64,000 nt of DNA from Candidatus Berkelbacteria bacterium RIFCSPLOWO2_01_FULL_50_28 (GCA_001774395.1 MEZX01000002.1:160753-224752); one strand, 5' to 3'; shown: positions 3,001 to 56,606, counted from the first letter of the stretch. A program made the numbers and translations. The notes: generated by a model from the letters alone, not told the origin.

Positions 3001-5407
3001 TGGTGGCTGGGTCGGCATTAACATCGGTGCCGAAATAAACATAATAGCCCTGCAAACCGCTCCCAGCGTCGCTCGCTCCGCTCCAGGTGAAATACGGTGC
3101 CACATGGGGGTAGCTCTGGCCGCTGGTCAGGGCGGTGCCACCAACCTGCTGGGACGATCCGGTGGCGGAGGACGGGTTTGTCGGGGCTGTTTCATCTGAG
3201 GTGTAGGTCACAGTGAAATCATCCAGCGTCGGCGTCACCGTTTTATCAGTTGATGCTGTAAACGTCAGCCGAACCTGAAGATAGCGATTAACGGTTGATT
3301 GGATGTCTGAACCCGAAAGGGCTTGGTAGGAAGTCCAGCTACTGTTATCGGCGCTACTTCTGGTTTCGATTAAAAGCGACGAATCGCTACCAGCAGTTGT
3401 GGTACTGGCGAGCGAGACCCAGGCGGAGACGAAGCTAAAATCAAAGACGGGGCTGGTGTAAGTGCCGCTCGTAGTGTAACTGTTGGCATCGATCGAGTAA
3501 GTCCAGAAGTCAGCCACCCCGTTGCCCCGGACGGCATAAATCGTGCTACCCATCACCGCTAGAGAGGCGCCGTTGTAAGCTCCGACACCCCCTGCCGCCG
3601 CTAGCTGGGTGTTAGCTAGTTTTCGCCAGGAGTCGCCGCTGATGTTGTACTCGTAGAACTTGTCTTTGTAGTAACCAGCCAGCGCGTAAATTTTACCCGA
3701 TTTGTACTCGAGAGAAGCGCCGTAGTAGGCCGGGAACGGGGCGGAAGCGATCTCACTCCAGGTATTAGTGCCAACAGTGTATTTCAGAAATCGGCTAACG
3801 CCGTAACCTGGTAGAGCGTAAATGTCCGTGCCATCACTTACCATACGGCCACCAACATTGGCGACCGATGTTTGCGGTGAGGTCGGCAAGTCGGCGACTG
3901 ATGCATCGTCCCAAGAGTCACCAGAGATCGAATAGCGGTAAAAAGTAGCTGTACCGGCTCCGCGAAGAGCATAGATATAGTCTCCTGACCCGGGGTACAC
4001 CAAGCCGCCACCGTTACCAATCGCTGCCAGGGTGATCGCCAACAGTGACCAGGAATTGCCGGCGATGTCATAGCGTAAGAAGTTGGTATTGTTACCCTGG
4101 AAAAAGTAAAGATAGTTGCCCGCCTTCACCCCAAAGGTGTCGTAATTAAAATTGTAAGTAACTGAAGCGACGATAGCACTGGCCATCAAAGACCAAGTAT
4201 TGGCCGAGGAGTCGTAACGAAGAAGGTTAGCCGTATTTCCCCCTCGCAATAGATAAACGTATTGAGCCCCGTCAGATATTAGATTGCCGCCCGTGCCAAC
4301 GGTATAGGCAACAGAAGAAACTATCGGCTCAGCCGAACCAACCCAGGCGGAGGTGTTCGGGTTCCAGGCCCAGAAAGTTCGGGTTGAAGTGCCACGAAAT
4401 GCGTAGATCCGGTCGGTGCCAGAGACATAAATTAACCCGCCGTAGTTCACTGTTAGCGGTACATCGGTCAGTGCTTCCCAAGTATTGCCGGAAATTGAGT
4501 ACCGATACCAAGTTAAGGTGCCGCCGCTTCGAGCTTTGTAGATGTAGTTGCCAACTACCATTGCGTTACCGTCGGCGTTCATTAGTCCTCCGGCCGTGAC
4601 ATCGGCCACGGCCGCGTCGCTCCAAGTTCCGGCCGCAATATCGTAGCGATAGAAACTCAAGGTATTGTTGCCTCGCCAGGCGTAGATGTAGCCAGCGTTA
4701 TAAACAAGGTCAGCGCCGTTATAAATTGTAGCCGGCGGGCCAGTTAGCGGGTCCCAAGTGTTGGTGCCAATATTGTAACGGTAGAAGTCTTGGGAGTTGT
4801 TGCCACGCAAGAGGTACATATTAGTGCCGTCAAAGGCCAAGCCGCTACCATTGCCAACAACATCCGAGGTCTCGGCTAGCTCGGTCCAGGTATTGGTACT
4901 GATGGTATATTTGGCAAATTTTTTAGTGTAGAGCCCGAAAGTGGCGTAAATGGCGCCGGTTGAGTCGTAGCGCATATCCGACCCAATGCCAACGGCAAAC
5001 GGAGCGTTGGCCATGGCCCGCCAGGTATTTCGGACCGGGTCGTAGCGCCAGAAGTAGGCAAATGATCCGCCGCGCAGAGTATAAATATAAGTGCCGTCGC
5101 TCGAAAAAGCCGATCCAGATTCGATGGTGTCGGGCGGTTCAGCCCAGCTTCTAGCACCCCAAGACCCAGCCGCTTGGAGCTGGAGACGATCCGGTGTTGA
5201 TTCGGTGTCGAGACCGCTCAAGACTCCCAACTCATAATCGGCCTTAGTAGTGACGGTCTGGGTTAAGTTGGCGGCAAAACTGGACGGACTGTAACCGAGG
5301 GTGACAAGTATGATGAACACCGAAAGTAACGCAACCCCCCGTCTGGTCCACGGGTGCGTGGCCAAATAACTGACATGCCGGACTATGTGTCGGTGGTTAA
5401 ATTTCAT
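1..5407 (-). CDS. Giant secreted/surface repeat protein (>1800 aa; its C-terminus runs off the left edge of the window). N-terminal signal/anchor, then more than 30 Kelch-type beta-propeller repeats (consensus ..G.IY..RG.....FYRYD...NTW..L..) with FN3/Ig-like modules (YYVYFGTD...) toward the C-terminus
   Basis: My own translation of the minus strand from the ATG at about 5407 gives MKFNHRHIVRHVSYLATHPWTRRGVALLSVFIILVTLGYS... followed by the repeat units. The frame (end mod 3 = 1) has no stop from 5407 to position 1, which would explain its absence from the complete-ORF track. All listed minus-strand ORFs in 1-5400 lie in other frames. An SD-like GGGGA lies upstream. Confidence 0.75.
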   Translation of the reverse strand, partial: MKFNHRHIVRHVSYLATHPWTRRGVALLSVFIILVTLGYSPSSFAANLTQTVTTKADYELGVLSGLDTESTPDRLQLQAAGSWGARSWAEPPDTIESGSAFSSDGTYIYTLRGGSFAYFWRYDPVRNTWRAMANAPFAVGIGSDMRYDSTGAIYATFGLYTKKFAKYTISTNTWTELAETSDVVGNGSGLAFDGTNMYLLRGNNSQDFYRYNIGTNTWDPLTGPPATIYNGADLVYNAGYIYAWRGNNTLSFYRYDIAAGTWSDAAVADVTAGGLMNADGNAMVVGNYIYKARSGGTLTWYRYSISGNTWEALTDVPLTVNYGGLIYVSGTDRIYAFRGTSTRTFWAWNPNTSAWVGSAEPIVSSVAYTVGTGGNLISDGAQYVYLLRGGNTANLLRYDSSANTWSLMASAIVASVTYNFNYDTFGVKAGNYLYFFQGNNTNFLRYDIAGNSWSLLAITLAAIGNGGGLVYPGSGDYIYALRGAGTATFYRYSISGDSWDDASVADLPTSPQTSVANVGGRMVSDGTDIYALPGYGVSRFLKYTVGTNTWSEIASAPFPAYYGASLEYKSGKIYALAGYYKDKFYEYNISGDSWRKLANTQLAAAGGVGAYNGASLAVMGSTIYAVRGNGVADFWTYSIDANSYTTSGTYTSPVFDFSFVSAWVSLASTTTAGSDSSLLIETRSSADNSSWTSYQALSGSDIQSTVNRYLQVRLTFTASTDKTVTPTLDDFTVTYTSDETAPTNPSSATGSSQQVGGTALTSGQSYPHVAPYFTWSGASDAGSGLQGYYVYFGTDVNADPATSGSLATTATFTANTAMTAGTYYLRLKAVDNKNNNASSTYAAFTYVYNGVTPPQSLQMTSQANFETGTLTSVSATQSSGNLQLSTATGSWGQESLIAPPASIYVGGMFAYVASSNKLYTFRGNNTTTFYSYDVAGNAWTTEGASNFGNVYAGGGVVEGPSGYLYGWIGNGSSSFARYTISSSTWDDSAAADLPLAANYGASAVYDGSRYIYFLRGNSDDAFWSYDTQNNTWANLTNANFGNGTANQTTYLGAALAFDGTDTIYASQGNNYSYFAKYTISTNTWTPLTMAPVGFYVGANLNYDATTNAVYGLAGNNRGTFLKYDTVNDVWSIIQEPPLYTSYGAAQRIIGRNIYTLRGANTTAFWIFDIDNGVWKKPVQNVFGTQYAGTIYYPTSNGASVVKGDGNYYYATRGNIDSQFVRFDRSSSTVVTMAPVPEGLNQGASLVYDSVNGTIYATTGTTNLDFFKYTISSNSWVKINSGSTDLVPASLNAGSDMVYDGSRYIYLSRGANGAQFYRYDTQGSAGSRWSTMTSSTSTPSWGGSLVYNSGYIYMTRGSSTASFYRYDVGANTWSDPLVADAPGTVSTGGSLSLGSDGKIYLARGNIGTPPQNLYVYDITLNTWSTLNNAPAGWGAGGDLSGENGEQLHGFLGQGTNAISDGIYTYTQQTSTTSFAKTGSYTSTAHSLTSVYKWANLTANYTAPANTTVSIKTQSSSDGADWSSLTAVTNAQRTTGTDTYTYQIASPANAYLRVEVTLTSDGLHTPTFNDYTISYYQDTTAPTNPDALTVYDSDEENSTLVTSTWYNYAAPKFSWNAGTDNAGGSGVEGYYLYFGTDSEANPSITSGIINDGSAVQFQTGAEYILDEAMSSGSTYYFLVKTRDNAQNISGSAWEAFTYQFDSTAPTNPGSISVNPAGYSATDSFTFSYSAGSDAQSGVLKYQYRTGGDAVDSWTDSNPLTTTSIALPNDEHAEGQYQSGTNIFYLRTVDNAGNASSSTSANYYY

Positions 5408-6699: not shown

Positions 6700-6739
6700 A
6701 AATGCTACAAATATGAGTAAAAATCCTAAAGGAGGTTCA

Positions 6740-7030
6740 ATGCAACTGCAACCACTTTCCGACCGCTTGGTCGTTAAACCGCTCGATGCGGAAACCGTAT
6801 CGAAATCCGGTATCGTCATTCCCGACACCGCCAAAGAGAAGCCCCAAGAGGGCGAAGTTATTGCTGTCGGACCGGGCCGAGTCGATAAAGACGGCCAGAG
6901 AATTGAGATGGAAGTTAAAAAGGGAGATAAGGTTCTCTTTGGCAAGTATGCCGGAGATGAATTTAAGCTTGATGGAGTTGAATACAAGATTATTAGAGAA
7001 GATGAAGTACTGGGCATCCTGAAAGGATGA
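6740..7030 (+). CDS. groES: Co-chaperonin GroES (10 kDa chaperonin)
   Basis: MQLQPLSDRLVVKPLDAETVSKSGIVIPDTAKEKPQEGEVIAVGPG... is the canonical GroES sequence. AAAGGAGG lies 6 nt upstream of the ATG. The track ORF starts earlier at 6713, but that start has no SD. Confidence 0.95.
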   Translation: MQLQPLSDRLVVKPLDAETVSKSGIVIPDTAKEKPQEGEVIAVGPGRVDKDGQRIEMEVKKGDKVLFGKYAGDEFKLDGVEYKIIREDEVLGILKG

Positions 7031-8842
<1,812 letters not shown>

Positions 8843-8887: not shown

Positions 8888-8951
8888 CAAACCCAATTTT
8901 CGTGGGGAGGAGGGGCTTAATTCCGAGGCAGCCCCTACCTCCCCACACCCC

Positions 8952-9033
8952 ATACCCTGCACGGTTCCCACAGGGGTGAGGAGAAAATTCGCCTCCCTTC
9001 CGGAAGGTTCGCGGAGCGAATTGGCAAATTTTG
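8952..9033. repeat. About 82-bp structured palindromic element, copy 1 (copy 2 at 56607-56690, about 85% identical)
   Basis: ATACCCTGCACGGTTCCCACAGGGG...GAAAATTCGCCTCCCTTCCGGAAGGTTCGCGGAGCGAATTGGCAAATTTTG. The inner CCTTCCGGAAGG is a perfect palindrome nested in an AATTCGC/GCGAATT stem. Confidence 0.7.
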
Positions 9034-9048
9034 ATTTATTATTTCCCC

Positions 9049-9062
9049 GCCAAAAGAAAACG
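9049..9062 (+). promoter_or_regulatory. Islet motif copy 1: GCCAAAAGAAAACG (core of TTAACTTCCCGCCAAAAGAAAACGGCTCC)
   Basis: ttccccgccaaaagaaaacgccc lies about 80 nt upstream of the ORF at 9130. Confidence 0.55.
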
Positions 9063-9129
9063 CCCATACCTGGATTTTTACTGCCGCTTCTGATATTATT
9101 CAACAAAATCTTTCCTGAGGAGGAAAAGG

Positions 9130-9672
9130 ATGGAAGGAACGTACATTCACGAGTTTTGGGCTGTCACTGGGTCGTGGTCGCTCTATCACGTGACCGATGA
9201 GTTAAATGATCTTGGATTTCCCAATGTGGAGAAAGTGGGTAGCGTTGGGGTAAGCAAGCTGGAGGTAGGTGCTCGTCTCAAGAACGGCCGGCTCGTTGGC
9301 ATCACCGATTCCGGATTAACGCTCTTTAACCCGGGAAGGAGATCGAATTTTGCCAGTGAGGTTAACGTTCTCCACTGGGGCGGGACGACAACACCTTTTG
9401 TCGGCCTCTTTCTTGACGAAGAGACGGCTCGAGAGTGCCTCAACCTCAATATCATTGGACCTATCTTTGAAGACGAATTCACGAAATGTGCTGGCGAAGT
9501 TGTCAGGGGGATTGCGCAAGGCCATCTTGTTTTCCGACTCGATCCGGCAGTCTGCAAACGTTTCGGATTGAAAGCACTTGAGGTCTGCCCCAGCTGCACT
9601 TGGGCGGGTCTAGACGTTCACAAACACACACTAGAGTGCCACCCTGAAGTGGCCATCGATCGCCGCAAGTGA
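9130..9672 (+). CDS. Hypothetical protein, 180 aa, with a C-terminal Cys/His cluster (CPSCTWAGLDVHKHTLECH)
   Basis: ORF with GAGGAGG 7 nt upstream; no recognisable domain. Confidence 0.5.
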   Translation: MEGTYIHEFWAVTGSWSLYHVTDELNDLGFPNVEKVGSVGVSKLEVGARLKNGRLVGITDSGLTLFNPGRRSNFASEVNVLHWGGTTTPFVGLFLDEETARECLNLNIIGPIFEDEFTKCAGEVVRGIAQGHLVFRLDPAVCKRFGLKALEVCPSCTWAGLDVHKHTLECHPEVAIDRRK

Positions 9673-9695
9673 TATGGTCCTGCTGCTATTCGAAG

Positions 9696-9721
9696 CCCGC
9701 CTGAAAAGGCGGGCGACTTTT
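9696..9721 (+). terminator. Intrinsic terminator (GCCCGCC-tgaaaag-GGCGGGC + gaCTTTTT), immediately followed by islet motif copy 2 (9723-9741)
   Basis: A perfect 7-bp stem plus a T tract 24 nt after the stop. The motif gccaaaagaaaacggctcc follows directly. Confidence 0.65.
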
Positions 9722-9766
9722 TGCCAAAAGAAAACGGCTCCGCTGTGTTTTTGCTACTATTGAACA

Positions 9767-10153
9767 ATGAAGTTTCATCGTCTACTGGGGCTTTTGTTGA
9801 TAATCTTTTGCGCCGGAGTTGTATTGCTAGCTCTTCTGAGCCTAACGACTTTCTCACTCCTTACGATAGTGGCATTTCCCATGATGCTGGAAAATGTTTC
9901 TTCAATCTATCCTGAGGGAGTGGTTTGGTTGATCGTAATATTCGAGCTCATCGTTGGGGCTCTTGCGGGCTGGTATCTCCTTAGAGGAAGACTTCTTGGC
10001 CTCAAGCTGTTCATTGTTGTTGGTGCAGTTGGTATCCTTTTGTATTTGCAACCAACCATACTTAGCAATATCCTTCTAGCCTTGATTTTACTTGGAGTGG
10101 GATTCCTTACATACAGAAGCCTTCTAGACTCACGGCAAGAACCGGGACGTTAG
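9767..10153 (+). CDS. Small integral membrane protein (128 aa, about 4 TM helices)
   Basis: Hydrophobic throughout (LLGLLLIIFCAGVVLLALLSL...). Confidence 0.55.
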   Translation: MKFHRLLGLLLIIFCAGVVLLALLSLTTFSLLTIVAFPMMLENVSSIYPEGVVWLIVIFELIVGALAGWYLLRGRLLGLKLFIVVGAVGILLYLQPTILSNILLALILLGVGFLTYRSLLDSRQEPGR

Positions 10154-10209
10154 CTAGGCTAGTAGGGTTAGGGGAGGGTTCTCTTTCAATCTGAAGATTC
10201 ACTAAAACC

Positions 10210-10223
10210 GCCAAAAGAAAACG
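10210..10223 (+). promoter_or_regulatory. Islet motif copy 3 (aaaaccGCCAAAAGAAAACGactcc), followed by TTGACT-17-TAGAGT
   Basis: The motif and then a sigma70-like promoter lie upstream of the lipoprotein gene. Confidence 0.55.
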
Positions 10224-10295
10224 ACTCCGGGAAAGTCTTGACTTTACCTGAGCAAAGAGGTAGAGTATCAATACTTTGCGAACAGGAGGGTTTGT

Positions 10296-10596
10296 AGTGC
10301 GTAAAGCGTTCTCCTTCATTCTCGTCGCTCTCTTTGTTCTGCTTCTAGCTGGTTGCGCTCCTGGTCCGAATACGGCTATGAGCACACCGGTGCCGAACGG
10401 CGAAGCGGGATTCCTACTCGGTCTGTGGCACGGACTAATCGTTTGGGTGACATTCATCGTATCGCTCTTCAACGATCAGGTCAGCATCTACGAAGTGCAC
10501 AACAACGGTGGATGGTACAACTTTGGCTACATCCTCGGTCTCGGATCTGCGCTCGGTGGTACTGCAACGGCCTCGAGCCGCAGCAACAAGGACTGA
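10296..10596 (+). CDS. Small lipoprotein / membrane protein (about 100 aa) with lipobox LLAGC
   Basis: A GTG start 7 nt after AGGAGGG gives VRKAFSFILVALFVLLLAGCAP. The track ORF begins at a TTG at 10276. Confidence 0.55.
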
Positions 10597-10659
10597 AGAC
10601 CCCATCAAGTCACCGCCCGGAAAAGCTTTCAAACTTTCCGGGCGGTTTTTTAACTTCCC

Positions 10660-10673
10660 GCCAAAAGAAAACG
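10660..10673 (+). promoter_or_regulatory. Islet motif copy 4 (tttttTAACTTCCCGCCAAAAGAAAACGGCTCC), directly after the terminator at 10615-10650
   Basis: A CCCGGAAAG...CTTTCCGGGCGG hairpin with TTTTTT, then the motif, about 70 nt upstream of the NTase gene. Confidence 0.6.
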
Positions 10674-10745
10674 GCTCCTTCTGTATTTATTTACTGGTTT
10701 AGGCTAAAGTACTTCTAACGCACATTAGTGCTACAGGAGAACAAG

Positions 10746-11687
10746 ATGTCCAGATTTTTGCCGTATGAGCTCATTGAGCGGCGTTTCCGGACATCACCGG
10801 AAATGCTGCAAGAATTAGCTGACCGGGTCATGACCCACCCACCGTTCCGAGATGGAACCGCTGTAGTCTTCGGTTCTGTTGCTTGGGGAACACAAACCTG
10901 GCGTAGCGATCTAGATATTGCCATCAACAGCCCGGAGGACGGCCGTGGTTCATTAAGGTATCACTACCCGTATGACTACCACGATGCTTCGGAAGCAGTG
11001 AGAGTGGAAGTCGAAAACGTTTTTAGCCAGAGTCGTGGAAACGTTATCCAGTTCCTCCTTGTTGAAGTGCTTGGGAGCCAAATGGGAGTTGGTAACTATG
11101 ACCATCCGAGAATTTCGCCGTCAACATCTGACCATTTCAAACTATTGGCGAAGGTAAAAGGTGGTCCGTGGTCGAAGTTTAACCGCCGTATCAAGCTGAT
11201 CGGGCGGCGTGATCGAAAGGACGATGTCGTTAAGTACGCTGGCACTATTGCCCGGGTTGCCACCGGCTTCTTTCAGGATGTAAAGGAGGGGCATCGGGTT
11301 AACGTCTTTGACGCTCGCTCGCTTCAGGCCCTGGAAAACTTCCCGAAACAGCTAACAAGGAAACTCCTTGGTCTGTATGAGGCATTGCCGTGCCCAGACA
11401 CGTTCGACAACATCATGCAGACTCTCTCCGAGACGAAGCAAGGTTGGGCACGTCAGCTGTTAGAGCTCTATCAACCGTTCTTTGATATCCACAACTCGTA
11501 CACGAAACTAGTTGATGACATCTTCGACGGCTCAGTAGTGCTCGATGAAGCTGAGTACAACCGGCGATTGGTAAACTACCTCCGACCTATGCCCTTCGCG
11601 CAAGTGGGAGTAACCCTAGGAGAGCTATTCCCTGACTGTTCGTACTGGAAACGAGGCGTCGACCAGCTTCGGTACACCAGGACTTGA
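10746..11687 (+). CDS. Pol-beta-superfamily nucleotidyltransferase-domain protein (313 aa) with an uncharacterised C-terminal helical region
   Basis: VVFGSVAWGTQTWRSDLDIAI matches the hG[GS]x9-13[DE]h[DE]h NTase signature. The ATG at 10746 lies 5 nt after AGGAGA. The track start is a GTG at 10728. Confidence 0.65.
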   Translation: MSRFLPYELIERRFRTSPEMLQELADRVMTHPPFRDGTAVVFGSVAWGTQTWRSDLDIAINSPEDGRGSLRYHYPYDYHDASEAVRVEVENVFSQSRGNVIQFLLVEVLGSQMGVGNYDHPRISPSTSDHFKLLAKVKGGPWSKFNRRIKLIGRRDRKDDVVKYAGTIARVATGFFQDVKEGHRVNVFDARSLQALENFPKQLTRKLLGLYEALPCPDTFDNIMQTLSETKQGWARQLLELYQPFFDIHNSYTKLVDDIFDGSVVLDEAEYNRRLVNYLRPMPFAQVGVTLGELFPDCSYWKRGVDQLRYTRT

Positions 11688-11701
11688 TACGAACGACTAT
11701 G

Positions 11702-11728
11702 GCCTGTCTGAGAATGACAGGCTCTTTT
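11702..11728 (+). terminator. Intrinsic terminator (GCCTGTC-tgagaat-GACAGGC + tcTTTTT), followed by islet motif copy 5 (11738-11751)
   Basis: Stem plus T tract 15 nt after the NTase stop; then TTAACTTCCCGCCAAAAGAAAAAGAGCC. Confidence 0.65.
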
Positions 11729-11838
11729 TAACTTCCCGCCAAAAGAAAAAGAGCCTAACGGCCTTTTTCATACCCCAGACCACTTGACTCTGTCTTCTTG
11801 GTCTGGTAACATGTTGCTGATCGGTACTGGAGGACAGA

Positions 11839-11985
11839 ATGGACCGTTGCCCAAAATGTGGAAAGTTGCTTTGTGATCACACGCCGGCTGAGCGGGGGCA
11901 GACCTCCGAACAGCTCGACGCGCAGATGGAACAAAACCAGCGAGAGCTGGAAGAGCGACAAGCGCCACCCACCAAGGACGACTAG
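11839..11985 (+). CDS. Small zinc-ribbon protein, 48 aa (MDRCPKCGKLLCDHTPAERGQTSEQLDAQMEQNQRELEERQAPPTKDD)
   Basis: Not in the track because it is under 60 aa. AGGAGG lies 5 nt upstream and TTGACT-17-TAACAT further upstream. It is antisense to two overlapping minus-strand track ORFs that are probably spurious. Confidence 0.4.
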   Translation: MDRCPKCGKLLCDHTPAERGQTSEQLDAQMEQNQRELEERQAPPTKDD

Positions 11986-12046
11986 TCCTGGACAACAGGC
12001 GGCCGAGCGATCGGCCGCCTGTAACTTATATTAGTTATGCACTAAC

Positions 12047-13111
12047 ATGGGAGGGCAAATGGAAGAAACGCCAGACCCAATTACCCACGGTACAACAACA
12101 GCCGAAACCCAAGTTCCCGAGTATTTTCGGGCTCCGCTCAAAAATTCTAGTCCGCCCAAAATAGATGTGCCCCCCGTCGTTGATACTGTCGATGTTGTTG
12201 ACATCAATGAAGTGAGCCCTGCGGAACGACTCAAGTATTTTCAGCCTTTGATTGAAGCCGCACTAACTAAGTGCGAACAGGTAGTACAAGAGATGAAAGA
12301 AGCTCATGAGCGAGGTGAAACCTTCGACGGAGGGAAGATATTTGACGCTCGTTCAGAACTGTACGAACTGGCGATGAAAATGTGTGGCTATGAAGCCAGG
12401 AAATCTGACTTGCTGGCAATGCACGATCTGATCCGTCCTCAACGCGGTGAGGTTTCTGTTGACCTGTCCGCCGGCACGGGGTTTCTTACACAGGCCGTAG
12501 AATATTGGACGGGAGCGCGGACTTACGCTGTCGATCCAAGTGAAATTCAACTCCAACACCTAGTTCAGAACTGTGGAGACCAGGTAACGGCGGTCCATGC
12601 TGCTCCGAACGAAACGGACAAGATATTTGCCGACGGAAATATTCCTCATGAAGGAGTAGATGTTGTCACCAGTTTTGGTGGGTGGCATCACGTGGATAAA
12701 GAAAAATTGCCAGAGGCGATGCAAAACGTTGCCGATATGTTGAAGCCAAAAGGACGATTTGTGGTCGGTGATGTGGGGGCAGAAACACCTCTACAGCGAC
12801 ATTTTGATGAAATCGTAACTGACAAATGCTTGACGGGACACGAAATGGGTCAGTTCATGAGCCCGGAGAAGTTGAAAGAACTTGCGGAAAGCGCGGGCCT
12901 GGAATTGGTCAGTGCCGAGATGAAGCCACTGACTTGGGATTTTAATTCAGAAGAAGAAATGGCCTGGTTTTTCAAGGGTCTGCACGCCTATCCCCAGCCG
13001 GTGGAAGAGATTATTCAGGATTTACGCGACACGCTTGGAGTTAAAGAAGAAGACGGCAAATTCAAACTCAACTGGCCAATGCTCTTCTGGGAAATTCGCA
13101 AACCAGAATAA
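12047..13111 (+). CDS. Class I SAM-dependent methyltransferase-like protein (354 aa)
   Basis: Motif I VDLSAGTGFLTQAV. The alternative ATG at 12059 follows GGGAGGG. Confidence 0.65.
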   Translation: MGGQMEETPDPITHGTTTAETQVPEYFRAPLKNSSPPKIDVPPVVDTVDVVDINEVSPAERLKYFQPLIEAALTKCEQVVQEMKEAHERGETFDGGKIFDARSELYELAMKMCGYEARKSDLLAMHDLIRPQRGEVSVDLSAGTGFLTQAVEYWTGARTYAVDPSEIQLQHLVQNCGDQVTAVHAAPNETDKIFADGNIPHEGVDVVTSFGGWHHVDKEKLPEAMQNVADMLKPKGRFVVGDVGAETPLQRHFDEIVTDKCLTGHEMGQFMSPEKLKELAESAGLELVSAEMKPLTWDFNSEEEMAWFFKGLHAYPQPVEEIIQDLRDTLGVKEEDGKFKLNWPMLFWEIRKPE

Positions 13112-13117
13112 CTTCCT

Positions 13118-13131
13118 GCCAGAAGAAAACA
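13118..13131 (+). promoter_or_regulatory. Islet motif copy 6 (variant: aacttcctGCCAGAAGAAAACAgc), in the 23-nt gap between convergent genes
   Basis: Sequence as shown. Confidence 0.45.
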
Positions 13132-13134
13132 GCT

Positions 13135-13899
13135 TTACTTCGTTGTGAGCGTATTCCAGACACCTTTGCAGAATTCGCGTAAGTTATGAGCCATCAACGG
13201 GTCGTGAATTTCAATCAGGTAGTGCGGCGAGCGATTGGTAACGACCATAATAACGTAGTCGCCAACAATCCAAGTGGTAGCGGTGAATTGTTTTACTGAA
13301 GCCCATGGGCGAATCTCTCGTTGTGGGTGCTGGGTAACTACCTTCTCAATGTCGGCTTCATTCGAAAGAAGTTTTGCATATACTTCCTTTGCTGAGGGCT
13401 GTTTCCAAAATACCTCGATCCAATCGAGATAGTTTTCTACAAAAGTAGGGTCCTGGTAGCCCCACCATGTACTATCGACAGTCTTAGCGCTTTCGTTCCA
13501 CGTTGGCGTTTGTTGGAAGAAGAAGCGCGAGATGTCTTCTTGGGTGATGAACTGAATTTTGGGGACTGGGTATTGGGTGGAGCCGGCTTCTTTATTCAGG
13601 GCCTCAATCAGTGGCTGGAGAAGCTTCTTTCTTTCCTCGACTTGGCGAAGTTGGTTGTCGAGGATGGTCGTGAGATTCTTTGGTGCAATTGCAGTTAAGC
13701 GAGCAACCTTTTGGCTTAAATCCTCGGCAATGAGGCCGCGTGTAACTAGTTCCTTGGCAGCGGAGTAGACAGTAGTCCGTTTTATGCCGGATAGATTAGC
13801 TACTTCGGTGTGGGAGACGATCCCTGCTTTCAACACCGTCAAGTAAACTTCGGCCTCAGTGTCGTTGATGCCGAGTATCTTGAGCTGTTCGTTGTTCAT
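13135..13899 (-). CDS. TrmB-family transcriptional regulator (254 aa)
   Basis: N-terminal wHTH: LGINDTEAEVYLTVLKAG..SHTEVANLSGIKRTTVYSAAKELVTRGLI. The promoter TTGACT-17-TAAACT ends 6 nt before the ATG, so the mRNA is near-leaderless. Confidence 0.8.
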   Translation of the reverse strand: MNNEQLKILGINDTEAEVYLTVLKAGIVSHTEVANLSGIKRTTVYSAAKELVTRGLIAEDLSQKVARLTAIAPKNLTTILDNQLRQVEERKKLLQPLIEALNKEAGSTQYPVPKIQFITQEDISRFFFQQTPTWNESAKTVDSTWWGYQDPTFVENYLDWIEVFWKQPSAKEVYAKLLSNEADIEKVVTQHPQREIRPWASVKQFTATTWIVGDYVIMVVTNRSPHYLIEIHDPLMAHNLREFCKGVWNTLTTK

Positions 13900-14013
13900 G
13901 GTCTCAGTTTAACTATTTGTCGAAAGATAGTCAACAAAAGTATCAGTCCAGAAAGAAAAACCGTTGATAAAGTGTTGACATATACTACGCCTCCTGTTAT
14001 AGTGCCGGTTAGT

Positions 14014-14424
14014 ATGTTCATTTATAAAACATCGCTTAAACCCAGCCCCATCCACGGGTTGGGGGTGTTCGCTTGGAAGGGGATCAGAAAAGGGAGTGTT
14101 GTCTATCAACATCGACCCGAACTGGACCAAATCTTCAGCGCCAACGAGTTTGCCAACCTAGATCGGCGCGACCAAGCACTGATTCTCCATTACGGCGGAT
14201 TAGATAAGCGGCTAAACCGCTATCGCTTGCCGTACGACAACCTGCGATTCTTGAACCATTCGGATACGCCGAACCTGGTTTATGTAGTCGCTACCGACCA
14301 GATCGTTGCCCTCCGGGCGATCGCTGCCGGCGAGGAACTTACCCAGAATTATCGCGATTTCGAAGATGGTGTCGAATTTCGAATCGCCAAGTCAGTCAAG
14401 AATCCAAATGAGGAGAAGCAATGA
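14014..14424 (+). CDS. SET-domain protein (putative protein-lysine methyltransferase), about 136 aa
   Basis: GLGVFAWKGIRKGSVV, RFLNHSDTPN (NHSCxPN-like) and EELTQNY (ELxFDY-like) motifs. The internal ATG at 14014 follows TTGACA-17-TATAGT. The track ORF starts upstream at 13810, but that part has no protein-like sequence. Confidence 0.7.
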   Translation: MFIYKTSLKPSPIHGLGVFAWKGIRKGSVVYQHRPELDQIFSANEFANLDRRDQALILHYGGLDKRLNRYRLPYDNLRFLNHSDTPNLVYVVATDQIVALRAIAAGEELTQNYRDFEDGVEFRIAKSVKNPNEEKQ

Positions 14425-15134
14425 AGAATACAACAATATCACTTTTGGTAGCCGTCGTTACGGCGCAGTCGTGGGCTCAGGACAGCCTTCAGGTTTCCTA
14501 CAAATCGGTTCTGAAATCGAGCTACGTCGGTGGTCAGACTGGAATGCGTCTTCACGACGGCCCGGTCACCCAGAATTCGGCCACATTCGCTCGCAAGGGA
14601 ATGTACGCCTACATATGGGTCTGTTCGCCGCTAGACACGCGGTGGAACTCTGACTACGGTAGCGAGATTGACCTCGGCTTCGGTCATGATTTCGCTCTGA
14701 AGAACGGTTGGCGCGTTGATGTGGGTTATGCCTACTACAACGTGATTCCCCTCGAGAACATGCGAGGGGACCTCCACGCGATTAGTGCGCATGTCTACCA
14801 GACTCGGGGTGTAATCAGGTCGTTTGCCAGGCTTGAGCAGGATGTCGCCCAGAATCCTTCGATTCTGCCGGGCGGCTTCACCTACAAGCTAGGTGTGAAT
14901 TGGTCTGCCTCTCCCGAGCTCCGCGCAGAGCTGGCCCTACTTGGTCACGGCCGAGTTTACGGGATTTCGGCGGAGACAGTTAGTGCCGGCACGTGCAGTC
15001 TTACGCTCAACCGAAAACTGAATGGTCTGTCTGTACAGGCTGGGATAACCTTCCAGCGGGCACTGGGCCGTAGCGTCGCTAACGGCGGTGCCGCCCATAA
15101 CGAAACGGTGCTCTGGATCGGTTTCTCTTTCTGA
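14421..15134 (+). CDS. Secreted beta-strand-rich protein (237 aa) with a signal peptide and C-terminal ...WIGFSF (OMP-barrel-like)
   Basis: MKNTTISLLVAVVTAQSWAQD signal peptide; alternating aromatic/hydrophilic pattern; terminal Phe. Confidence 0.6.
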   Translation: MKNTTISLLVAVVTAQSWAQDSLQVSYKSVLKSSYVGGQTGMRLHDGPVTQNSATFARKGMYAYIWVCSPLDTRWNSDYGSEIDLGFGHDFALKNGWRVDVGYAYYNVIPLENMRGDLHAISAHVYQTRGVIRSFARLEQDVAQNPSILPGGFTYKLGVNWSASPELRAELALLGHGRVYGISAETVSAGTCSLTLNRKLNGLSVQAGITFQRALGRSVANGGAAHNETVLWIGFSF

Positions 15135-15154
15135 ATCGCCGAAGTCAATGCAAT

Positions 15155-15182
15155 TGCCCGCCTGAAATACGGCGGGCTCTTT
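15155..15182 (+). terminator. Intrinsic terminator (GCCCGCC-tgaaatac-GGCGGGC + tcTTTTT); islet motif copy 7 follows at 15236-15249
   Basis: Stem plus T tract 20 nt after the stop; then tatttcccACCAAAAGAAAACGGtttta. Confidence 0.65.
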
Positions 15183-15358
15183 TTAATTGCGACGAAAGGT
15201 GATGAAGGAGCAATACGAGCTTGCGACTATTTCCCACCAAAAGAAAACGGTTTTACCTCGCCGTAGCTTGGCGAAGGCGGGCCCCACCAGATTGAATCCC
15301 TATCGGCTTGGGTGTAGAATCTACCCATACTGCGATTACTTCGCAGAGGAGACAGCGA

Positions 15359-16006
15359 TTGAGAAACTTCATCCTCGCACTTTTCGTCATTGTATTGGCT
15401 GGTTGCAGTAACGCTCCCGCGCCAAAAACGACCACAACCAAGACGGGCGACCCGGTTTTCGACAAACACATCACCGAACTCGACAAGGATGTCGTGGAAA
15501 TGGGCGAGGCGGCCGAGGAGCTTACCTGGCTCGACCACCACGTTCAGCCGTTGGTCGATCGTCTGATTGAGACTGGCGATCGAATCGAAAACACGAGCGA
15601 CCAAGCTGAGAAGGCCCGGTTGCGCCTCGAATTCGAACAGATCACCGCTGAGCTCGAGGTCAAGGAAAAAGAACGTGCTCAGCTATTTGGCAAGGAAAAG
15701 CCGAAGGCCGGTGCGTTTCGGTTCGACCTGAAGCCTAAGAGCCACTACGGCCACGTGGCTGGAGTTGGCGACGTGAGTGTCACCGAGGAATCGCGGGTCG
15801 ATCACAAGATCGGGGCGTTCCCAAGGTCAAGTTTCGGCTACATTAGCACCGAGTGGCACTTGACCTCAAGGATCATTAACCTCGACAGGACGTGCTCGAC
15901 AACCATGACACCCAAAGGAGTCGTTCATGTGCGGCGAGCTCTAGGCTGCAATCGGGTGATGTCTAAGGCCGACAAGCTACCAAAGCAAAGTCGGTCGAGG
16001 GGCTGA
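15359..16006 (+). CDS. Lipoprotein (about 215 aa) of unknown function
   Basis: A TTG start 7 nt after GAGGAG gives MRNFILALFVIVLAGCSNAP (lipobox LAGC). The upstream part of track ORF 15308 lacks an SD. Confidence 0.55.
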   Translation: MRNFILALFVIVLAGCSNAPAPKTTTTKTGDPVFDKHITELDKDVVEMGEAAEELTWLDHHVQPLVDRLIETGDRIENTSDQAEKARLRLEFEQITAELEVKEKERAQLFGKEKPKAGAFRFDLKPKSHYGHVAGVGDVSVTEESRVDHKIGAFPRSSFGYISTEWHLTSRIINLDRTCSTTMTPKGVVHVRRALGCNRVMSKADKLPKQSRSRG

Positions 16007-16007
16007 G

Positions 16008-16214
16008 GTGGACACGATCTACACCCTTGTTTGGGCCTTGATACTGCTGGGAGCGTACGCCCAAGCGAGAAACGAGCGGGCCAAACGCGCCGAGGAGGAG
16101 CTTGAGAAATCCGAGGGACTATTCTCGGAATTCAATATCGTTCGGGATCCGGATGCTCCCGAGTACAACCTGGCGGAACTACGAGAATTCCACGACCAAA
16201 ATCGCCCGAGCTAG
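16008..16214 (+). CDS. Small membrane-anchored protein (68 aa), GTG start, abutting the upstream gene
   Basis: N-terminal TM segment then a charged tail; GAGGTG overlaps the upstream stop. Confidence 0.3.
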   Translation: MDTIYTLVWALILLGAYAQARNERAKRAEEELEKSEGLFSEFNIVRDPDAPEYNLAELREFHDQNRPS

Positions 16215-16292
16215 TCTCGGGCAATAATTTATTGTAAAAAATGTGGCTCCGCCGTCTGCCAGTGATGACAGAGAGCGAAGCCGTTGGGAGAG

Positions 16293-17087
16293 CTACCGGA
16301 ACGTAACGTAAAGCGCGTCTTCCGGTATGGTGCCAAGCCCGAGTTCGGGTCGGGGCTTGATGTAGCATCGAGTTTTGCCGATCATAAACGTGCTGATGAA
16401 GTACAGGTTGCCGTGGCCGGCAAACTCCGTGACGTCAACGTACACATCGATCGTCGTTCCCGGGGTAATCGGCGATATGCGGACTGGCTTAGGCAGCACG
16501 AGGTCCTTGGACGTCGGAACGGCCATCAGCGGTTCGATCTCAAGAGTCTCGGGCCAAACGACGCTGCCGTCGTTACCTAACCGCCAGCCTTCATAGGTCC
16601 GGCCATCCTGCTTCTTCGTCGGTAGATCCTTGACCCACGTCATTGAGAAGCCTTCGATTCGGGGCGTGCGCCAGAACTTGTAGAGCGCGAAAAGCCGTTT
16701 GTCTTCCTCACCCGAGGACTGCGCCCAGGTTTGGTACAAGGCCTCCAGACGACCGACGCTTGGCCAGCCGTTTTGGCGATAGCCATCGATCTTGTACAGA
16801 GCCTGGAGGAACTGCGCTCCGCGACTCCCGACCAGCTTGGTCAAGCCGTCGGTCTTGCCGGCGGCAAGCCCTTGAAAGAGCGCTAGCCTCTGGGCGGGTG
16901 TGAGCAATTGGATCTGACCCAAATAGCTCGGAGCTTCAGCCAAAAAGTCGAACGGTTTCTCGCTCTGAGCTTTCGGCTGCCCTTGCGATGAACCAGTCGC
17001 TTGGCTAGATGTGTTGGGAGTTTGGCAGCTGATAACCACCGCCAGCGCTACCAGAAATGTGGCAGTAAGCATTTTGGAAATGAACAT
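16293..17087 (-). CDS. Lipoprotein (about 264 aa) of unknown function, in the GC-rich block
   Basis: The internal start MFISKMLTATFLVALAVVISC is preceded by GGAGGA. The upstream part of the track ORF is an Arg/Ser-rich artefact of high GC. Confidence 0.55.
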   Translation of the reverse strand: MFISKMLTATFLVALAVVISCQTPNTSSQATGSSQGQPKAQSEKPFDFLAEAPSYLGQIQLLTPAQRLALFQGLAAGKTDGLTKLVGSRGAQFLQALYKIDGYRQNGWPSVGRLEALYQTWAQSSGEEDKRLFALYKFWRTPRIEGFSMTWVKDLPTKKQDGRTYEGWRLGNDGSVVWPETLEIEPLMAVPTSKDLVLPKPVRISPITPGTTIDVYVDVTEFAGHGNLYFISTFMIGKTRCYIKPRPELGLGTIPEDALYVTFR

Positions 17088-17214
17088 GAATCCTCCGTTG
17101 CCAAGATTGGCAGAGAAATTGTACCAAGTAGTTGCCAGAAGATCAACCTGCTGGGTAACAAAAAAGCGACCCCTCCCCGTCTGGGAAGGAGCCGCGGTTA
17201 CCGCCGAAGGGCGG

Positions 17215-18669
17215 TTATGGGGCGAAGGCGATGTCCAGCCGGAGCTGGGTCTGGCCTCTGGAATGACCGGAGAGGAACTGACCGAGCCGGATCGATAAGG
17301 TCGTAGCACGACCTTTGATGTTGAGGATCGGACCGAGGAGGAACGTCGGCTTGTTGCCATCGCTGGCAAATGCCGCGCCGCCCAGCCCGTAGCTGAAGCT
17401 CTTGCCGGCACTCCAGGTCAGCCGGATGTTCGGAGCGAGGAAGCCGTTGTGCCCCTTCGCGTCCCGGGTAAAGTACACCGGGCCGGTCAAGGTTGCATTA
17501 CCAAGCTTGATCGCCGCGAATCCGCTGACACCGTAGCTGGTCAACTTGCCCGTGCCCGAGCAATCGGCGAACGGTCCGAGCGTCAGACTGCCGTTTAGCA
17601 ACTTCAGCTTGGTCACGTCCACTGCCAACTCGTAGACGGGGTGAGCTGACGAATAGCCGTAGATCGCGGCGTTTACACCTCCCTTGAACGTCAGGAACAG
17701 GTTTTCGGTGGCTGGCCCACCAACACTCAGATTCCGGCTGTAGTTGAGCTTCACGCGTTGGAGCACAAAGTTGTCGCCCGAGGCGTAAGCTTTGACCTGG
17801 CCAGCCATGACCATCAGCGTTCCGACGAGCGAAACGTAGACGGCCTGCTTGGCGTAGCCGAAGCGAACTCCGAAGCCGGCGTGACGCCAGCTCCCACCCC
17901 AGATGACCTTGAGCATTGCCCAGACCGTCTGCAGTGGTGAAACGGCGTCGAACCGACCCCGGCTGATAAGCTCCAGCACGTGTGTGCGCTTGGCTTCCCA
18001 GTCGATGCTGGTGTCTTCGTCTTCTCGGTAGCCGAGCTGGCGGATCTTGTCCATGAGCGAGCAGCTCTCGTGTGGCTTGTAGACTCCGAGGCCCACTCCC
18101 CAACACAGGCTAGCACCGACAAGCTCGAGCCATTCGGCACGAAACATAACTAGAAGCTGTCGGGGCGTGCGAGCCATCATTGCCAATCGCATCGCCAAGA
18201 TGAGAAAGGCGAGCGGGATGAACATGCACCCGATGACCAGTAAGCTGCCGATCGCTGCCCAGTCCATCCCGAGTGAGCCGTAACGTTGCTCCTGCTCTCT
18301 GGTGAGGTAGGCTGAAAGCCCGCCCATCACCGAACCGGGGATCTTGGTGATCGCGGCCAGCTGGGGTACGGAATCGTTGATGCCAACGGCGTGATCCATC
18401 CGCATTTCGATATCGCGGATGTCCAGAACGGTCTTGGCGTACTGCTCGCCGGTGAGCTCGCCCTTGGCCAGAGCGGCCGTGGCGATCTTGTTGATGCGCG
18501 CTGTGCCCTCCGGGGTGGAGAGCTGTTTCGCGACGTTGGCCGCTTCTCGCTCCTGATAATAGTTGTACCAACCCTTCAAGGGGAGGGCGGTTACGACGAA
18601 TGTGGCCACAATGAGCCACAGTAGCGCCGCGTAAACGGGGCGCTTCAACATACCTTCTGAACATTTCAT
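17215..18669 (-). CDS. Membrane protein (about 484 aa): N-terminal TM helices, beta-rich C-terminal half; GC-rich
   Basis: The start at MKCSEGMLKRPVYAALLWLIVATFVV is preceded by TAGGAGA. The C-terminus ...LRLDIAFAP. Confidence 0.55.
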   Translation of the reverse strand: MKCSEGMLKRPVYAALLWLIVATFVVTALPLKGWYNYYQEREAANVAKQLSTPEGTARINKIATAALAKGELTGEQYAKTVLDIRDIEMRMDHAVGINDSVPQLAAITKIPGSVMGGLSAYLTREQEQRYGSLGMDWAAIGSLLVIGCMFIPLAFLILAMRLAMMARTPRQLLVMFRAEWLELVGASLCWGVGLGVYKPHESCSLMDKIRQLGYREDEDTSIDWEAKRTHVLELISRGRFDAVSPLQTVWAMLKVIWGGSWRHAGFGVRFGYAKQAVYVSLVGTLMVMAGQVKAYASGDNFVLQRVKLNYSRNLSVGGPATENLFLTFKGGVNAAIYGYSSAHPVYELAVDVTKLKLLNGSLTLGPFADCSGTGKLTSYGVSGFAAIKLGNATLTGPVYFTRDAKGHNGFLAPNIRLTWSAGKSFSYGLGGAAFASDGNKPTFLLGPILNIKGRATTLSIRLGQFLSGHSRGQTQLRLDIAFAP

Positions 18670-19000
18670 GGTTTGCGTTCTCCTAAACTGAGAGGTTCGT
18701 GACTGAGCGGCAGGCCACTCAGTAGTCGGCGATAAACGCCTCCTAAAGCTTGCGACTTTGTCGCTCGCTATCGATGCGGGCATTGTAACAGTTAACGGGG
18801 GAAAGTCAAGATGTTAGGGGGTCTTTACAAATCTTGCGGTTAAAGAAGTGCGGCTTCGCCGATCTGCCACTTCTGACAGGGGGCGAGGCCGCAATGTGTG
18901 GTTTGGACGATCGGCTACCAGACTGCTGGCGGCGGCTGGTCGTCGGGTCGGTCCGATTGGGATGGTAGTTTGGACGCTGCCTCGGGGGTGTCGTCGTCGC

Positions 19001-19417
19001 CTAGGAAAAATTCGGTGATGAAAACTTGGTCCGAGCGCAAGCCGTAGACCAGGTGGCTGATGCCTTCAAGGATAACGCCGCTGATCTCGCTCCACTAGAC
19101 AGCTGGCGAGAACCCGATCCCGGGTAAGGTTCGATCCGGAGGTACTCTACGCCAGGCACGGTAGGTAACCACTTTACCAAACCCTGAGTGACGTCCATAG
19201 GACGACGACATGCATCGGGCGGATAAGCGATCCCGTCGCCTGGGCCTTCAACATCTAACGCCTGAACGTTGCTGATCATAGTGTTGACACAGCACTCGGC
19301 GTAGAACGGCACACCCGTCCGGAAGATCACTCTGATGCGTGGCGGGAGAATGACCACAGAGATTCTCAAGGTCGAACTTTCGCCCTGATCGCTGACGGAT
19401 TTGCTTCTTCGACTCAT
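19001..19417 (-). CDS. Hypothetical protein (about 138 aa); possibly a decayed gene
   Basis: Only this ORF is open in 18.8-19.5 kb; the sequence looks protein-like but there is no domain or good SD. Confidence 0.3.
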   Translation of the reverse strand: MSRRSKSVSDQGESSTLRISVVILPPRIRVIFRTGVPFYAECCVNTMISNVQALDVEGPGDGIAYPPDACRRPMDVTQGLVKWLPTVPGVEYLRIEPYPGSGSRQLSSGARSAALSLKASATWSTACARTKFSSPNFS

Positions 19418-19856
19418 CTCTGACCTCCTATGTGCACGGCCCGTTGGCCTCGCGGTCAGTATTGTCAAAGTAACTACTCTCGTCAAGAAAATGGGTCTCG
19501 CATGCGAGGCTTTGGCGTGATATTATCGAATTGCCTGTATGGGTACTCTTGGGAGGACTAATGCCTATGAATGTGCATCGGTTCCGCTGTTAGGGTCCGG
19601 ATTCCTCGGTGTTGCAGGGCAATCGCTCTGCGACGATACGTTCAGAGCGGCGGGTTGAAGGGATGCCCTCACCCGCCGCCGTACTTTTTCTGGGGGCTTA
19701 AATGGCAGGAAACTACGAATCTACACCGACAAAACGAAAGATGATGGCGGTGGGGATTCTTCTCTTTGTCGCCTTGGTCGTATTCGCTCGCGCGATGTCC
19801 GGCTAAGGCCTGATCCAAGCCTTGAGATGGCGGCCCGTGAAACGGCCGCCACATTT

Positions 19857-20369
19857 TTAGGCCGCCGAAACGTTTTCGAGGACGGCAACTTGGTCAAACG
19901 TTGGCGTATTAACGCTGTCTTTGAACACGACGTTCTCCGGAGTGATAGCGACGAGAAATTGTCGCGGTATCAGCCGTTCATTGAACAGTTTTCGGAGCGC
20001 AAAACGGACAATTATGCCGGAGCTTGAATCGAATATAACGTCACACACCCGGCCGAGCGGCGCGCCCGACTCGGTCCTGGCATTCACCCCTAGTACCGGA
20101 CCAGTGCGGTGTCCAATTTCTTCCAGCTCTTTTTGGGGCTCTTGGAGCGCTGTTTCGCCGTCAACAAACGCTGCGCGTCGGTCGAGCGAGAGGATGTCGG
20201 TATAAAGAAGATATTTTTTCTTGCGCGAGGCGATGGATGATCGTTTGCAAACACACGCCACTAAGCCAGCGTGGCGATTATCAAAAACGAGTCGTTGGAC
20301 GCTGCCAAGTAGCGTTCCTCGGCTACTGCGAACGTCTAACCCTAATACTGCGGTCGCCTCAATAACCAT
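19857..20369 (-). CDS. Putative PRC-barrel-domain protein (170 aa, two PRC-like halves)
   Basis: AVLGLDVRSSRGTLLGSVQRLVFDNRHAGLVA and GVNARTESGAPLGRVCDVIFDSSSGIIVRFAL resemble the PRC-barrel pattern. Confidence 0.45.
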   Translation of the reverse strand: MVIEATAVLGLDVRSSRGTLLGSVQRLVFDNRHAGLVACVCKRSSIASRKKKYLLYTDILSLDRRAAFVDGETALQEPQKELEEIGHRTGPVLGVNARTESGAPLGRVCDVIFDSSSGIIVRFALRKLFNERLIPRQFLVAITPENVVFKDSVNTPTFDQVAVLENVSAA

Positions 20370-20521
20370 GTACTTCTAGATTAGCAAAACTCTTGCCGCT
20401 ACTCTACAATAATTGTTAGGGAGGGAACACGTCTAAAGAGCGGCTTTACTTTCGTTATAAGGTTAAAGATGAACACGGCAAGACCCGCGCTGGTCGTGCG
20501 GCGGCGAGTAATGCCTCTCAA

Positions 20522-56585: not shown

Positions 56586-56606
56586 GGACAAATTTCTAGC
56601 AGGGCC

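Follow-up and report, generated by a model that had tools for sequence, protein, structure and literature searches.

In the genome of Candidatus Berkelbacteria bacterium RIFCSPLOWO2_01_FULL_50_28, a member of the Candidate Phyla Radiation (CPR)/Patescibacteria from the Rifle aquifer, we analysed a stretch of 64,000 nucleotides (GCA_001774395.1, MEZX01000002.1:160753-224752; GroEL protein identical), hereafter the window, in which a short motif is repeated seven times within an islet of small genes. The islet lies between groES-groEL and a minus-strand gene block that ends in a PRC-barrel gene and is followed by T2SS-F/PilC and pilin genes; the seven copies of the motif, found at 9050-15248 and every one on the plus strand, divide it into intervals that we refer to as cassettes. 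A preliminary description of this DNA had annotated a Pol-beta nucleotidyltransferase, an S-adenosylmethionine (SAM) methyltransferase, a TrmB winged helix-turn-helix regulator and a SET-domain protein, all of which were borne out; profile searches returned no family match for the other islet genes. The features of the locus, with the copies of the junction motif numbered m1 to m7, are as follows:

6713-8842, plus strand: groES-groEL, the conserved left flank
8950-9032, plus strand: 83-nt two-hairpin element between groEL and m1, with a second copy at 56605-56687
9041-9068, plus strand: m1, core 9050-9061; first copy, right after the hairpin element 3' of groEL
9069-9714, plus strand: cassette 1, 180-aa Cys/His ORFan (9130-9672) and terminator
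9715-9742, plus strand: m2, core 9724-9735; 10 nt after the terminator at 9695-9714
9743-10201, plus strand: cassette 2, 128-aa membrane protein (9767-10153)
10202-10229, plus strand: m3, core 10211-10222; no upstream terminator, followed by a promoter-like TTGACT-17-TAGAGT at 10238-10266
10230-10651, plus strand: cassette 3, promoter, 99-aa lipoprotein (10297-10596) and hairpin terminator
10652-10679, plus strand: m4, core 10661-10672; long hairpin (~10614-10646) and T-run upstream
10680-11729, plus strand: cassette 4, 313-aa Pol-beta-type nucleotidyltransferase (10746-11687) and terminator
11730-11757, plus strand: m5, core 11739-11750 with one mismatch; after the terminator at 11701-11723
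11758-13109, plus strand: cassette 5, promoter (11784-11812), 48-aa zinc ribbon (11839-11985), terminator (11995-12022) and SAM methyltransferase (12059-13111)
13110-13137, plus strand: m6, core 13119-13130 with one mismatch; in a 23-nt gap between the convergent methyltransferase (plus) and TrmB (minus) genes
13138-15227, mixed strands: cassette 6, TrmB-like regulator (13135-13899, minus) and SET-domain protein (14014-14424, plus) with divergent promoters, then a 237-aa secreted protein (14421-15134, plus) and a terminator (15156-15177)
15228-15255, plus strand: m7, core 15237-15248; last copy
15256-19486, mixed strands: motif-free variable genes to the right of the array (215, 68, 264, 484 and 138 aa), partly shared with relatives
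19857-21634: conserved right flank, PRC-barrel protein (minus), T2SS-F/PilC (plus) and the start of the pilus cluster
38371-39309, minus strand: Xer-type tyrosine recombinase, a candidate only; the window shows no other recombinase, and this one is 23 kb away from the array

All copies share a 12-nt core, CCAAAAGAAAAC, which is exact at 9050, 9724, 10211, 10661 and 15237 and carries one mismatch at 11739 and 13119; the consensus across the copies reads a.TTTCCCGCCAAAAGAAAACGGCTCCgCC. Scanning both strands of the window with a weight matrix built from the seven copies gave scores of 28-48 bits for these and 15 bits for the runner-up site, a matrix built from 29 copies found nothing above 8 bits beyond them, and the chance expectation for the exact 12-mer in the window is ~0.008 occurrences. 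The motif in the window is real, non-random, of one polarity and restricted to 6.2 kb. The preliminary description had correctly counted seven copies and excluded others from the window; the full 29-mer that it gave as the repeat fits a single copy, at 10650. In the divergent TrmB/SET promoter region, CCAGAAAGAAAAACCG at 13948-13963 is similar to the motif core but for two 1-nt insertions that the consensus does not have; the similarity is probably due to chance.

Related loci were collected through one exact-pattern scan of metagenome contigs, an incomplete collection in that the window's own JGI contig is not among the returned stretches, and by fetching the groEL neighbourhoods of GroEL relatives; open reading frames (ORFs) in the fetched loci are our own calls unless gene calls came with the record. 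The scan returned 39 stretches, about half of which are single chance matches in unrelated organisms, the others being multi-copy arrays of relatives that live in the groundwater of the Rifle and Hainich aquifers. Altogether, 54 copies scoring above 19 bits were found at 15 loci (Rifle, Hainich and other aquifers), with none on the opposite strand, and wherever the flanks are visible the order is groEL, array, PRC/T2SS-F with the same polarity; in ~100 kb of non-array sequence from the motif-bearing genomes there are no copies. Repeats of the REP (repetitive extragenic palindrome), BIME (bacterial interspersed mosaic element) or MITE (miniature inverted-repeat transposable element) type are dispersed genome-wide in both orientations and are usually palindromic: this explanation does not fit the 54 copies, all on one strand and, where a flank is visible, at one locus, nor the ~100 kb without any. 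A phage or plasmid element was rejected, as scans of viral contigs with a 14-mer and a 17-mer gave only single matches at chance level and no phage or plasmid copy beside an integrase.

The number of copies differs between relatives: there are 11 in L300 (GCA_030650195.1; GroEL protein 97% identical), 10 in L305 (GCA_030699945.1; GroEL 90%) and one weak copy, that is, a one-copy state, in L301 (complete genome CP066697.1; GroEL 86%). The core does not change, and the arms are retained, between lineages whose groEL genes are only 73-88% identical in nucleotide sequence; this includes the left arm, which lay outside the search pattern. Even distant lineages show next to no variation in both arms and at CC..G..CGG. 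The right-hand extension of m7, GGTTTTACCTCGCC, is common to L253, L255, L256, L269, L300 and L305.

Between the conserved flanks, gene content is completely different from genome to genome: L300 and the window have no cassette in common in spite of their 97% GroEL identity. The region for which the preliminary description had proposed a synteny comparison, 9.0-16 kb, is indeed hypervariable, and in fact up to ~19.8 kb, and shared cassettes break at the motif. Individual cassettes recur in different arrays with different neighbours: a 168-aa GrpB-like cassette in L253, L281 and L300, a 135-aa ORFan cassette in L256/L282, L283 and L305 (L281 has a homologue of 48% identity) and a Phd-Doc cassette in L255, L256, L300 and L305. 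In pairwise nucleotide alignments of the GrpB cassettes (L253/L281/L300) and of the 135-aa cassettes (L256/L283), homology opens in the upstream motif and closes in the downstream motif, with unrelated flanks on either side. The comparison of L253 and L305 is particularly informative: groESL and T2SS-F show 88% and 84% nucleotide identity, whereas two cassettes reach 95.7% (A, 374 nt) and 95.9% (B, 615 nt). L253 has A and B side by side with one motif between them, and in L305 three motif-bounded cassettes intervene; the homology blocks of A and B overlap by 39 nt on the motif, and the A/B motif of L253 is a hybrid of two L305 copies with the switch falling within CAAAAGAAA. Thus, cassettes have been inserted or deleted at the motif, and there are cassettes younger than the genomes that host them. 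Neighbouring copies may be perfectly identical over no more than 9 nt (usable identity about 9-28 nt), and 9 nt is too short for efficient RecA recombination. Together, these comparisons demonstrate where cassettes begin and end, that the motif has one polarity and is specific to one locus, and that cassettes are inserted, deleted and exchanged.

What adjoins the motif varies from copy to copy. The preliminary description had placed the copies right after an intrinsic terminator; this holds for m2, m4 and m5, which follow a hairpin and T-tract, and does not hold for m3 and m6, which have no terminator, nor fully for m1, which follows the second hairpin of the 83-nt element, and m7, which lies 59 nt past its terminator. 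The distance from core to start codon, given there as 50-85 nt, actually ranges over 31-110 nt, and m6 has no start codon downstream since it sits in the gap between the convergent methyltransferase and TrmB genes. A census of 39 intervals between neighbouring motifs, with orientation counts corrected by hand, gave cassette lengths of 165-2736 nt (median 585): ~20 cassettes are forward, 11 reversed only, 4 mixed and 4 without an ORF, and the motif never flips. In the mixed cassettes a TrmB-like regulator is divergent from its cargo. Cassettes hold their own sigma-70-type promoter-like sites and hairpin terminators: a forward cassette ends in a hairpin and TTTTTAA running into the TTTCCCG arm, and when the next cassette is reversed its hairpin starts at a conserved ACGGCTCC, with the complement of the motif, GTTTTCTTTTGG, as U-tract. 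The best terminator-like site in L300, at 12402-12373 on the minus strand (GCGGCCTCTCCC..GGGAGAGGCCGT+TTTCTTTTGG), has the reverse complement of the motif as its U-tract. The joint doubles as a predicted two-way terminator pad.

Cargo of the cassettes comprises Phd-Doc and AbrB-PIN toxin-antitoxin pairs, GNAT acetyltransferases, methyltransferases, nucleotidyltransferases and ORFans and, by analogy, resembles that of chromosomal integrons; a reading as a defence island was dropped, PADLOC and PHROGs having given nothing specific. In cassette 2 an extended -10, TGcTACTAT at 9752-9760, stands 7 nt ahead of the ATG, from which we infer a leaderless mRNA. Signals of this type (extended -10 TGcTAnnnT ~7 nt before the ATG, no Shine-Dalgarno sequence) were seen at 9752-9769 of the window, at 4483-4498 of L253 and in the GrpB cassettes of L281 and L300; they suggest that such cassettes have leaderless mRNAs and support the ATG at 9767 (128 aa) over a 90-aa gene call. 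Three cassettes without ORF (165-279 nt; L300 11088-11271, L265 545-710, L305 4575-4854) have an extended -10 promoter-like site and a strong terminator and may be small-RNA genes, and one and the same terminator, GGCCGCGA..TCGCGGCC, recurs in L271, L300 and L305. A further motif-bounded cassette without ORF, at 4371-4530 of L305, contains a 160-nt tRNA-like RNA with a 7-bp acceptor stem, a T-arm with GGTTCGAATCC, a 3' CCA and a long insertion in place of the D and anticodon arms; it was called by neither ARAGORN nor Rfam.

These arrangements bear on the explanation of the motif as a shared promoter module, namely an UP element or activator site, or as terminator tail, with no role in recombination. 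The A-rich core does lie 12-15 nt upstream of a -35 in some cassettes (m3 of the window; L300 6450 and 9553). Its polarity, however, remains constant while 11 of the 39 cassettes are reversed, four mixed and four without ORF, it is found between convergent genes (m6 of the window, m2 of L253), its spacing to the -35 ranges from 9 to 44 nt, and the other promoters and terminators in the 64 kb are all without motif. In addition, a soil relative (L318 7880-9660; GroEL 88%) keeps the GrpB and 136-aa cassettes together with their promoters, its motifs being lost or truncated: only GAAAACGGCTCCGCC is left before the 136-aa gene, with one degenerate copy after it. From its sequence the L318 array appears fossilised, and the persistence of promoters without the motif indicates that the motif is not needed for cassette expression. 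This promoter reading, put forward in the preliminary description, is thus largely refuted and we consider it highly improbable.

The third option of the preliminary description, a recombination or cassette-boundary repeat, is the one backed by the evidence. Our preferred interpretation, to which we give a roughly even chance, is that the copies are att-like junctions in an integron-like array of cassettes, where crossover takes place within the invariant core and each arm belongs to the cassette next to it. According to this interpretation, one fixed chromosomal locus in a Berkelbacteria sub-lineage, groEL, array, PRC-barrel/pilus cluster, would take up cassettes that are each a full transcription unit (promoter, one to few genes or an RNA, terminator) in either orientation, bounded by two ~28-bp copies of constant polarity. 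Cassettes would be gained, lost and exchanged between genomes through a crossover inside the invariant core, at about CCAAAAGAAAACGG, so that the left arm (TTTCCCG) would stay attached to the cassette upstream and the right arm (CTCC...) to the one downstream. The site would be recognised by a sequence-specific recombinase encoded away from the array, both enzyme and mechanism being conjectural; such an enzyme is favoured by the near-invariant core and arms, the strict polarity, the single locus, the one-copy state of L301 and stretches of shared identity down to 9 nt. The motif may have a secondary role in termination, its T-rich left arm providing the U-tract for forward cassettes and its A-rich core, read as the reverse complement, that for reversed ones. 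To the more far-reaching proposal we assign a somewhat less than even probability: that this is a previously undescribed CPR gene-capture platform in which whole transcription units, be they protein genes in either orientation or genes for small or tRNA-like RNAs, are stacked downstream of groEL via a 28-bp asymmetric att site by a recombinase unlinked to the array. The enzyme could then be the lone Xer-type protein in a second role or belong to an unrecognised family, and the platform would be an integron analogue that evolved independently.

Several observations weigh against the att-like interpretation. Family searches revealed no recombinase in or beside any array, and on reading the sequence the site has none of the inverted-repeat arms typical of tyrosine or serine recombinase cores. 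The array is unchanged in ~20 Rifle assemblies with identical GroEL or PRC protein, contig L003 being the exception, and turnover is hence not fast; moreover, the right-hand part of the variable region has no motif between its genes in the window and in L269. Finally, L303, L306 and L307 (GroEL 87-89%) have the same variable locus without the motif, which suggests that the role can be filled by shared regulatory repeats of any kind. At its groEL-PRC locus L303 carries repeated terminator modules, CCGCCCTGAGCGTAGTCGAAGGGCGG+TTTTTATTAC at 15572-15622, 16471-16521 and 19295-19345, and a second repeat of 89 nt at 17794-17882 and 19548-19636. As to candidates for the enzyme, the Xer-type protein (38371-39309) has its best matches to XerC/XerD/XerA, and the IntI model matches it in two pieces, far below cutoff. 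The GIY-YIG gene beside groES was rejected as a homing nuclease, being missing from array-bearing relatives, and the right-flank proteins (138-191, 484 and 68 aa) gave no recombinase-like family match. Derivation of the motif from the 3' coding end of groEL was rejected since the resemblance is one of low complexity only, and the ends of contigs L251, L265 and L283, read as possible circular cassettes, do not match each other.

The lack of an array-linked recombinase would be expected if the motif were instead a mobile regulatory spacer, comparable to the promoter early stem-loop (PeSL) elements of T4-type phages, which combine a sigma-70 promoter with a stem-loop terminator, occur in several genome regions and are shuffled by phage homologous recombination, with mini-circles (PMC2839356, PMC4122927). 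Here, the motif would act as a bidirectional terminator/insulator pad, and shuffling would be incidental, via homologous or short-homology recombination with no dedicated recombinase, for example after natural transformation, its identity being kept as cassettes carrying the resident sequence recombine in more easily. Beyond the published precedent, this is consistent with the motif lying past the terminator of a unit and ahead of the next promoter, and with its reverse complement forming the U-tract of strong minus-strand terminators, both at the L300 site described above and in the hairpins after m2 of L253 and after m1-m2 of L269. Longer modules also stand by unrelated genes, namely the motif with GGTTTTACCTYGCC and the m4 hairpin with its motif (~70 nt), which is found again in L300, L265 and L251, and the motif-less L303 bears its other terminator modules at the same locus. 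Like PeSLs, the joints are short conserved terminator/promoter junctions that flank ORFans in a hyperplastic region and coincide with points of insertion, deletion and exchange among sequences that are otherwise unrelated. However, a role as U-tract would tolerate degeneracy, whereas the conservation of CC..G..CGG and both arms goes far beyond what that function needs; many joints lack a hairpin on one or both sides (such as m3 and m6); the identity between copies is at or under the RecA minimum; and neither the strict polarity nor the single cellular locus is required by the model. PeSLs, furthermore, are about twice as long and depend on phage hyper-recombination, and the block conserved here has no hexamers or stem but lies between a variable hairpin and a variable promoter. 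On balance, we regard a PeSL-like spacer, the main rival of the att-like junction, as possible but doubtful.

A further explanation would have the motif bound by a DNA-binding protein encoded elsewhere, a silencer, roadblock or stoperator-type repressor, possibly TrmB-like (for instance 32065-32943), whose task would be to silence or insulate acquired cassettes; sites and cassette boundaries would then fall together only because every unit requires a site of its own. An asymmetric, conserved site of ~28 bp in non-transcribed gaps and of one polarity is in keeping with this, and TrmB-like genes are frequent in arrays (the window, L255, L269, L281/L282 and L300), with a second one outside the array in the window. 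On the other hand, the complete arrays of L253 and L305 carry the motif but lack TrmB genes; TrmB paralogues from the arrays share only 25-48% identity, each being divergent from its own cargo, which is the pattern of local regulators; a 254-aa TrmB family extends across Patescibacteria, whereas the motif is limited to one sub-lineage; and the closest homologue of the window TrmB (69% identity) lies in a 13-kb motif-free stretch. Neither the ending of homology within the site nor the survival of cassettes and promoters in L318 would be explained, and we judge such a protein to be an improbable answer. The narrower suggestion of the preliminary description, an operator of the islet-encoded TrmB, is not supported and was rejected: TrmB-free arrays and the motif-free homologue locus again speak against it, as do sites between convergent genes and the asymmetry of a site that is not a dyad. 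The 69% TrmB homologue (L320 8376-10768, on a contig of GCA_030650195.1 other than L300) lies outside any array and adjoins a methyltransferase gene and a homologue of the window's 237-aa secreted protein, and cassette 6 of the window may, judging by this synteny, be a captured chromosomal block.

Mycobacteriophage stoperators share with the motif many copies of a short asymmetric site in short intergenic gaps and in one orientation; they are, however, oriented to transcription and spread over a whole prophage that has the repressor gene, whereas here polarity is independent of gene direction and the sites fall on recombination boundaries. Among the closest known systems are sedentary chromosomal integrons and CALINs (clusters of attC sites lacking integrases); in integrons intI, which encodes a tyrosine recombinase with an IntI-specific insertion, is adjacent to and divergent from the array. 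As there, small cassettes form an array at one chromosomal platform, every joint is marked by a direct repeat of constant polarity, close relatives have entirely different contents, the same cassette is found in different arrays with its boundaries in the repeat, and toxin-antitoxin pairs, acetyltransferases, methyltransferases and ORFans abound in the cargo. A classical integron was nevertheless rejected: there is no intI by the array and no Phage_integrase match in or beside any array, and the architecture is not that of attC sites, which are imperfect palindromes of 57-141 nt with RYYYAAC ... GTTRRRY boxes whose structure is conserved rather than their sequence. The site analysed here has ~28 nt, is asymmetric and conserved in sequence, and has neither the R''/L''/L'/R' palindrome nor a GTTRRRY/RYYYAAC box; the hairpins flanking its joints are cassette-specific terminators, missing at several joints. 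Integron cassettes are, in addition, mostly promoterless, co-oriented and expressed from the promoter Pc, whereas those of this CPR host have their own promoter and terminator, are reversed in 11 of 39 cases and are in part RNA-only.

Islands at att sites, such as the tycheposons of Prochlorococcus, which arise through repeated integration at one att site (bioRxiv 10.1101/2020.12.28.424599), or the arrays of integrative mobile elements exploiting Xer (IMEX) at dif, are alike in that successive insertions generate att-cargo-att-cargo arrays at a conserved position. Their att sites are partial tRNA genes or dif, and their recombinase comes from the incoming elements or is the host Xer at the terminus, whereas the array described here has no similarity to tRNA, no integrase remnants and far smaller units. 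A tRNA-derived att was rejected because ARAGORN and Rfam found no tRNA or RNA family at the motifs of the window, L300 and L305, and a dif/IMEX site at the terminus because GC skew is positive over the whole window without a switch and the site has no dif-like inverted arms.

The 83-nt element that precedes m1 has a copy at 56605-56687 that is 91.6% identical and lies between the glutamyl-tRNA synthetase gene and tRNA-Gln, 50 nt short of the latter; L305 likewise keeps the element after groEL (about 4220-4300; 92%), and the corresponding stretch of L003 is 11740-11830. The element has no Rfam match and folds no better than shuffled sequences (z = -0.46). Contig L003 (ERZ4903072) is 99.9% identical to the window up to 8987, in the middle of this element, including groEL and 9 kb upstream; beyond the breakpoint, at 11777-21632, it encodes a 71-aa and a 215-aa gene, HTH_25, recA, recX and PPDK without any motif, and represents either a strain rearranged at the 83-nt element or a misjoin. 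Downstream of the second copy, the last 20 nt of the 3' end of tRNA-Gln plus trailer (TCCAAGTCCCGGAGCAATGA, 56795-56814) are repeated 64 nt downstream at 56859-56878, a pattern resembling the scar left when an element inserts at the 3' end of a tRNA gene or is excised from it. Elsewhere in the window, 33234-33369 gave an above-threshold Rfam match to transfer-messenger RNA (tmRNA) that is only 136 nt long and yet covers both ends of the 374-position model; ARAGORN called no tmRNA there, and the sequence may represent a tmRNA that is reduced or split into two pieces.

The genomes of CPR bacteria are tiny, and the question addressed by this locus is how accessory genes are acquired and turned over in such ultra-small symbionts; our literature searches turned up no account of any cassette-based or integron-like system in these bacteria. 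If a dedicated enzyme does recognise the site, it would constitute a new site-specific recombination system and a possible tool for the insertion of complete expression units, whilst in case there is no such enzyme the locus would be the first cellular counterpart of the phage PeSL mechanism. Either way, the motif provides a probe with which the accessory-gene cassettes of this lineage can be retrieved from metagenomes.

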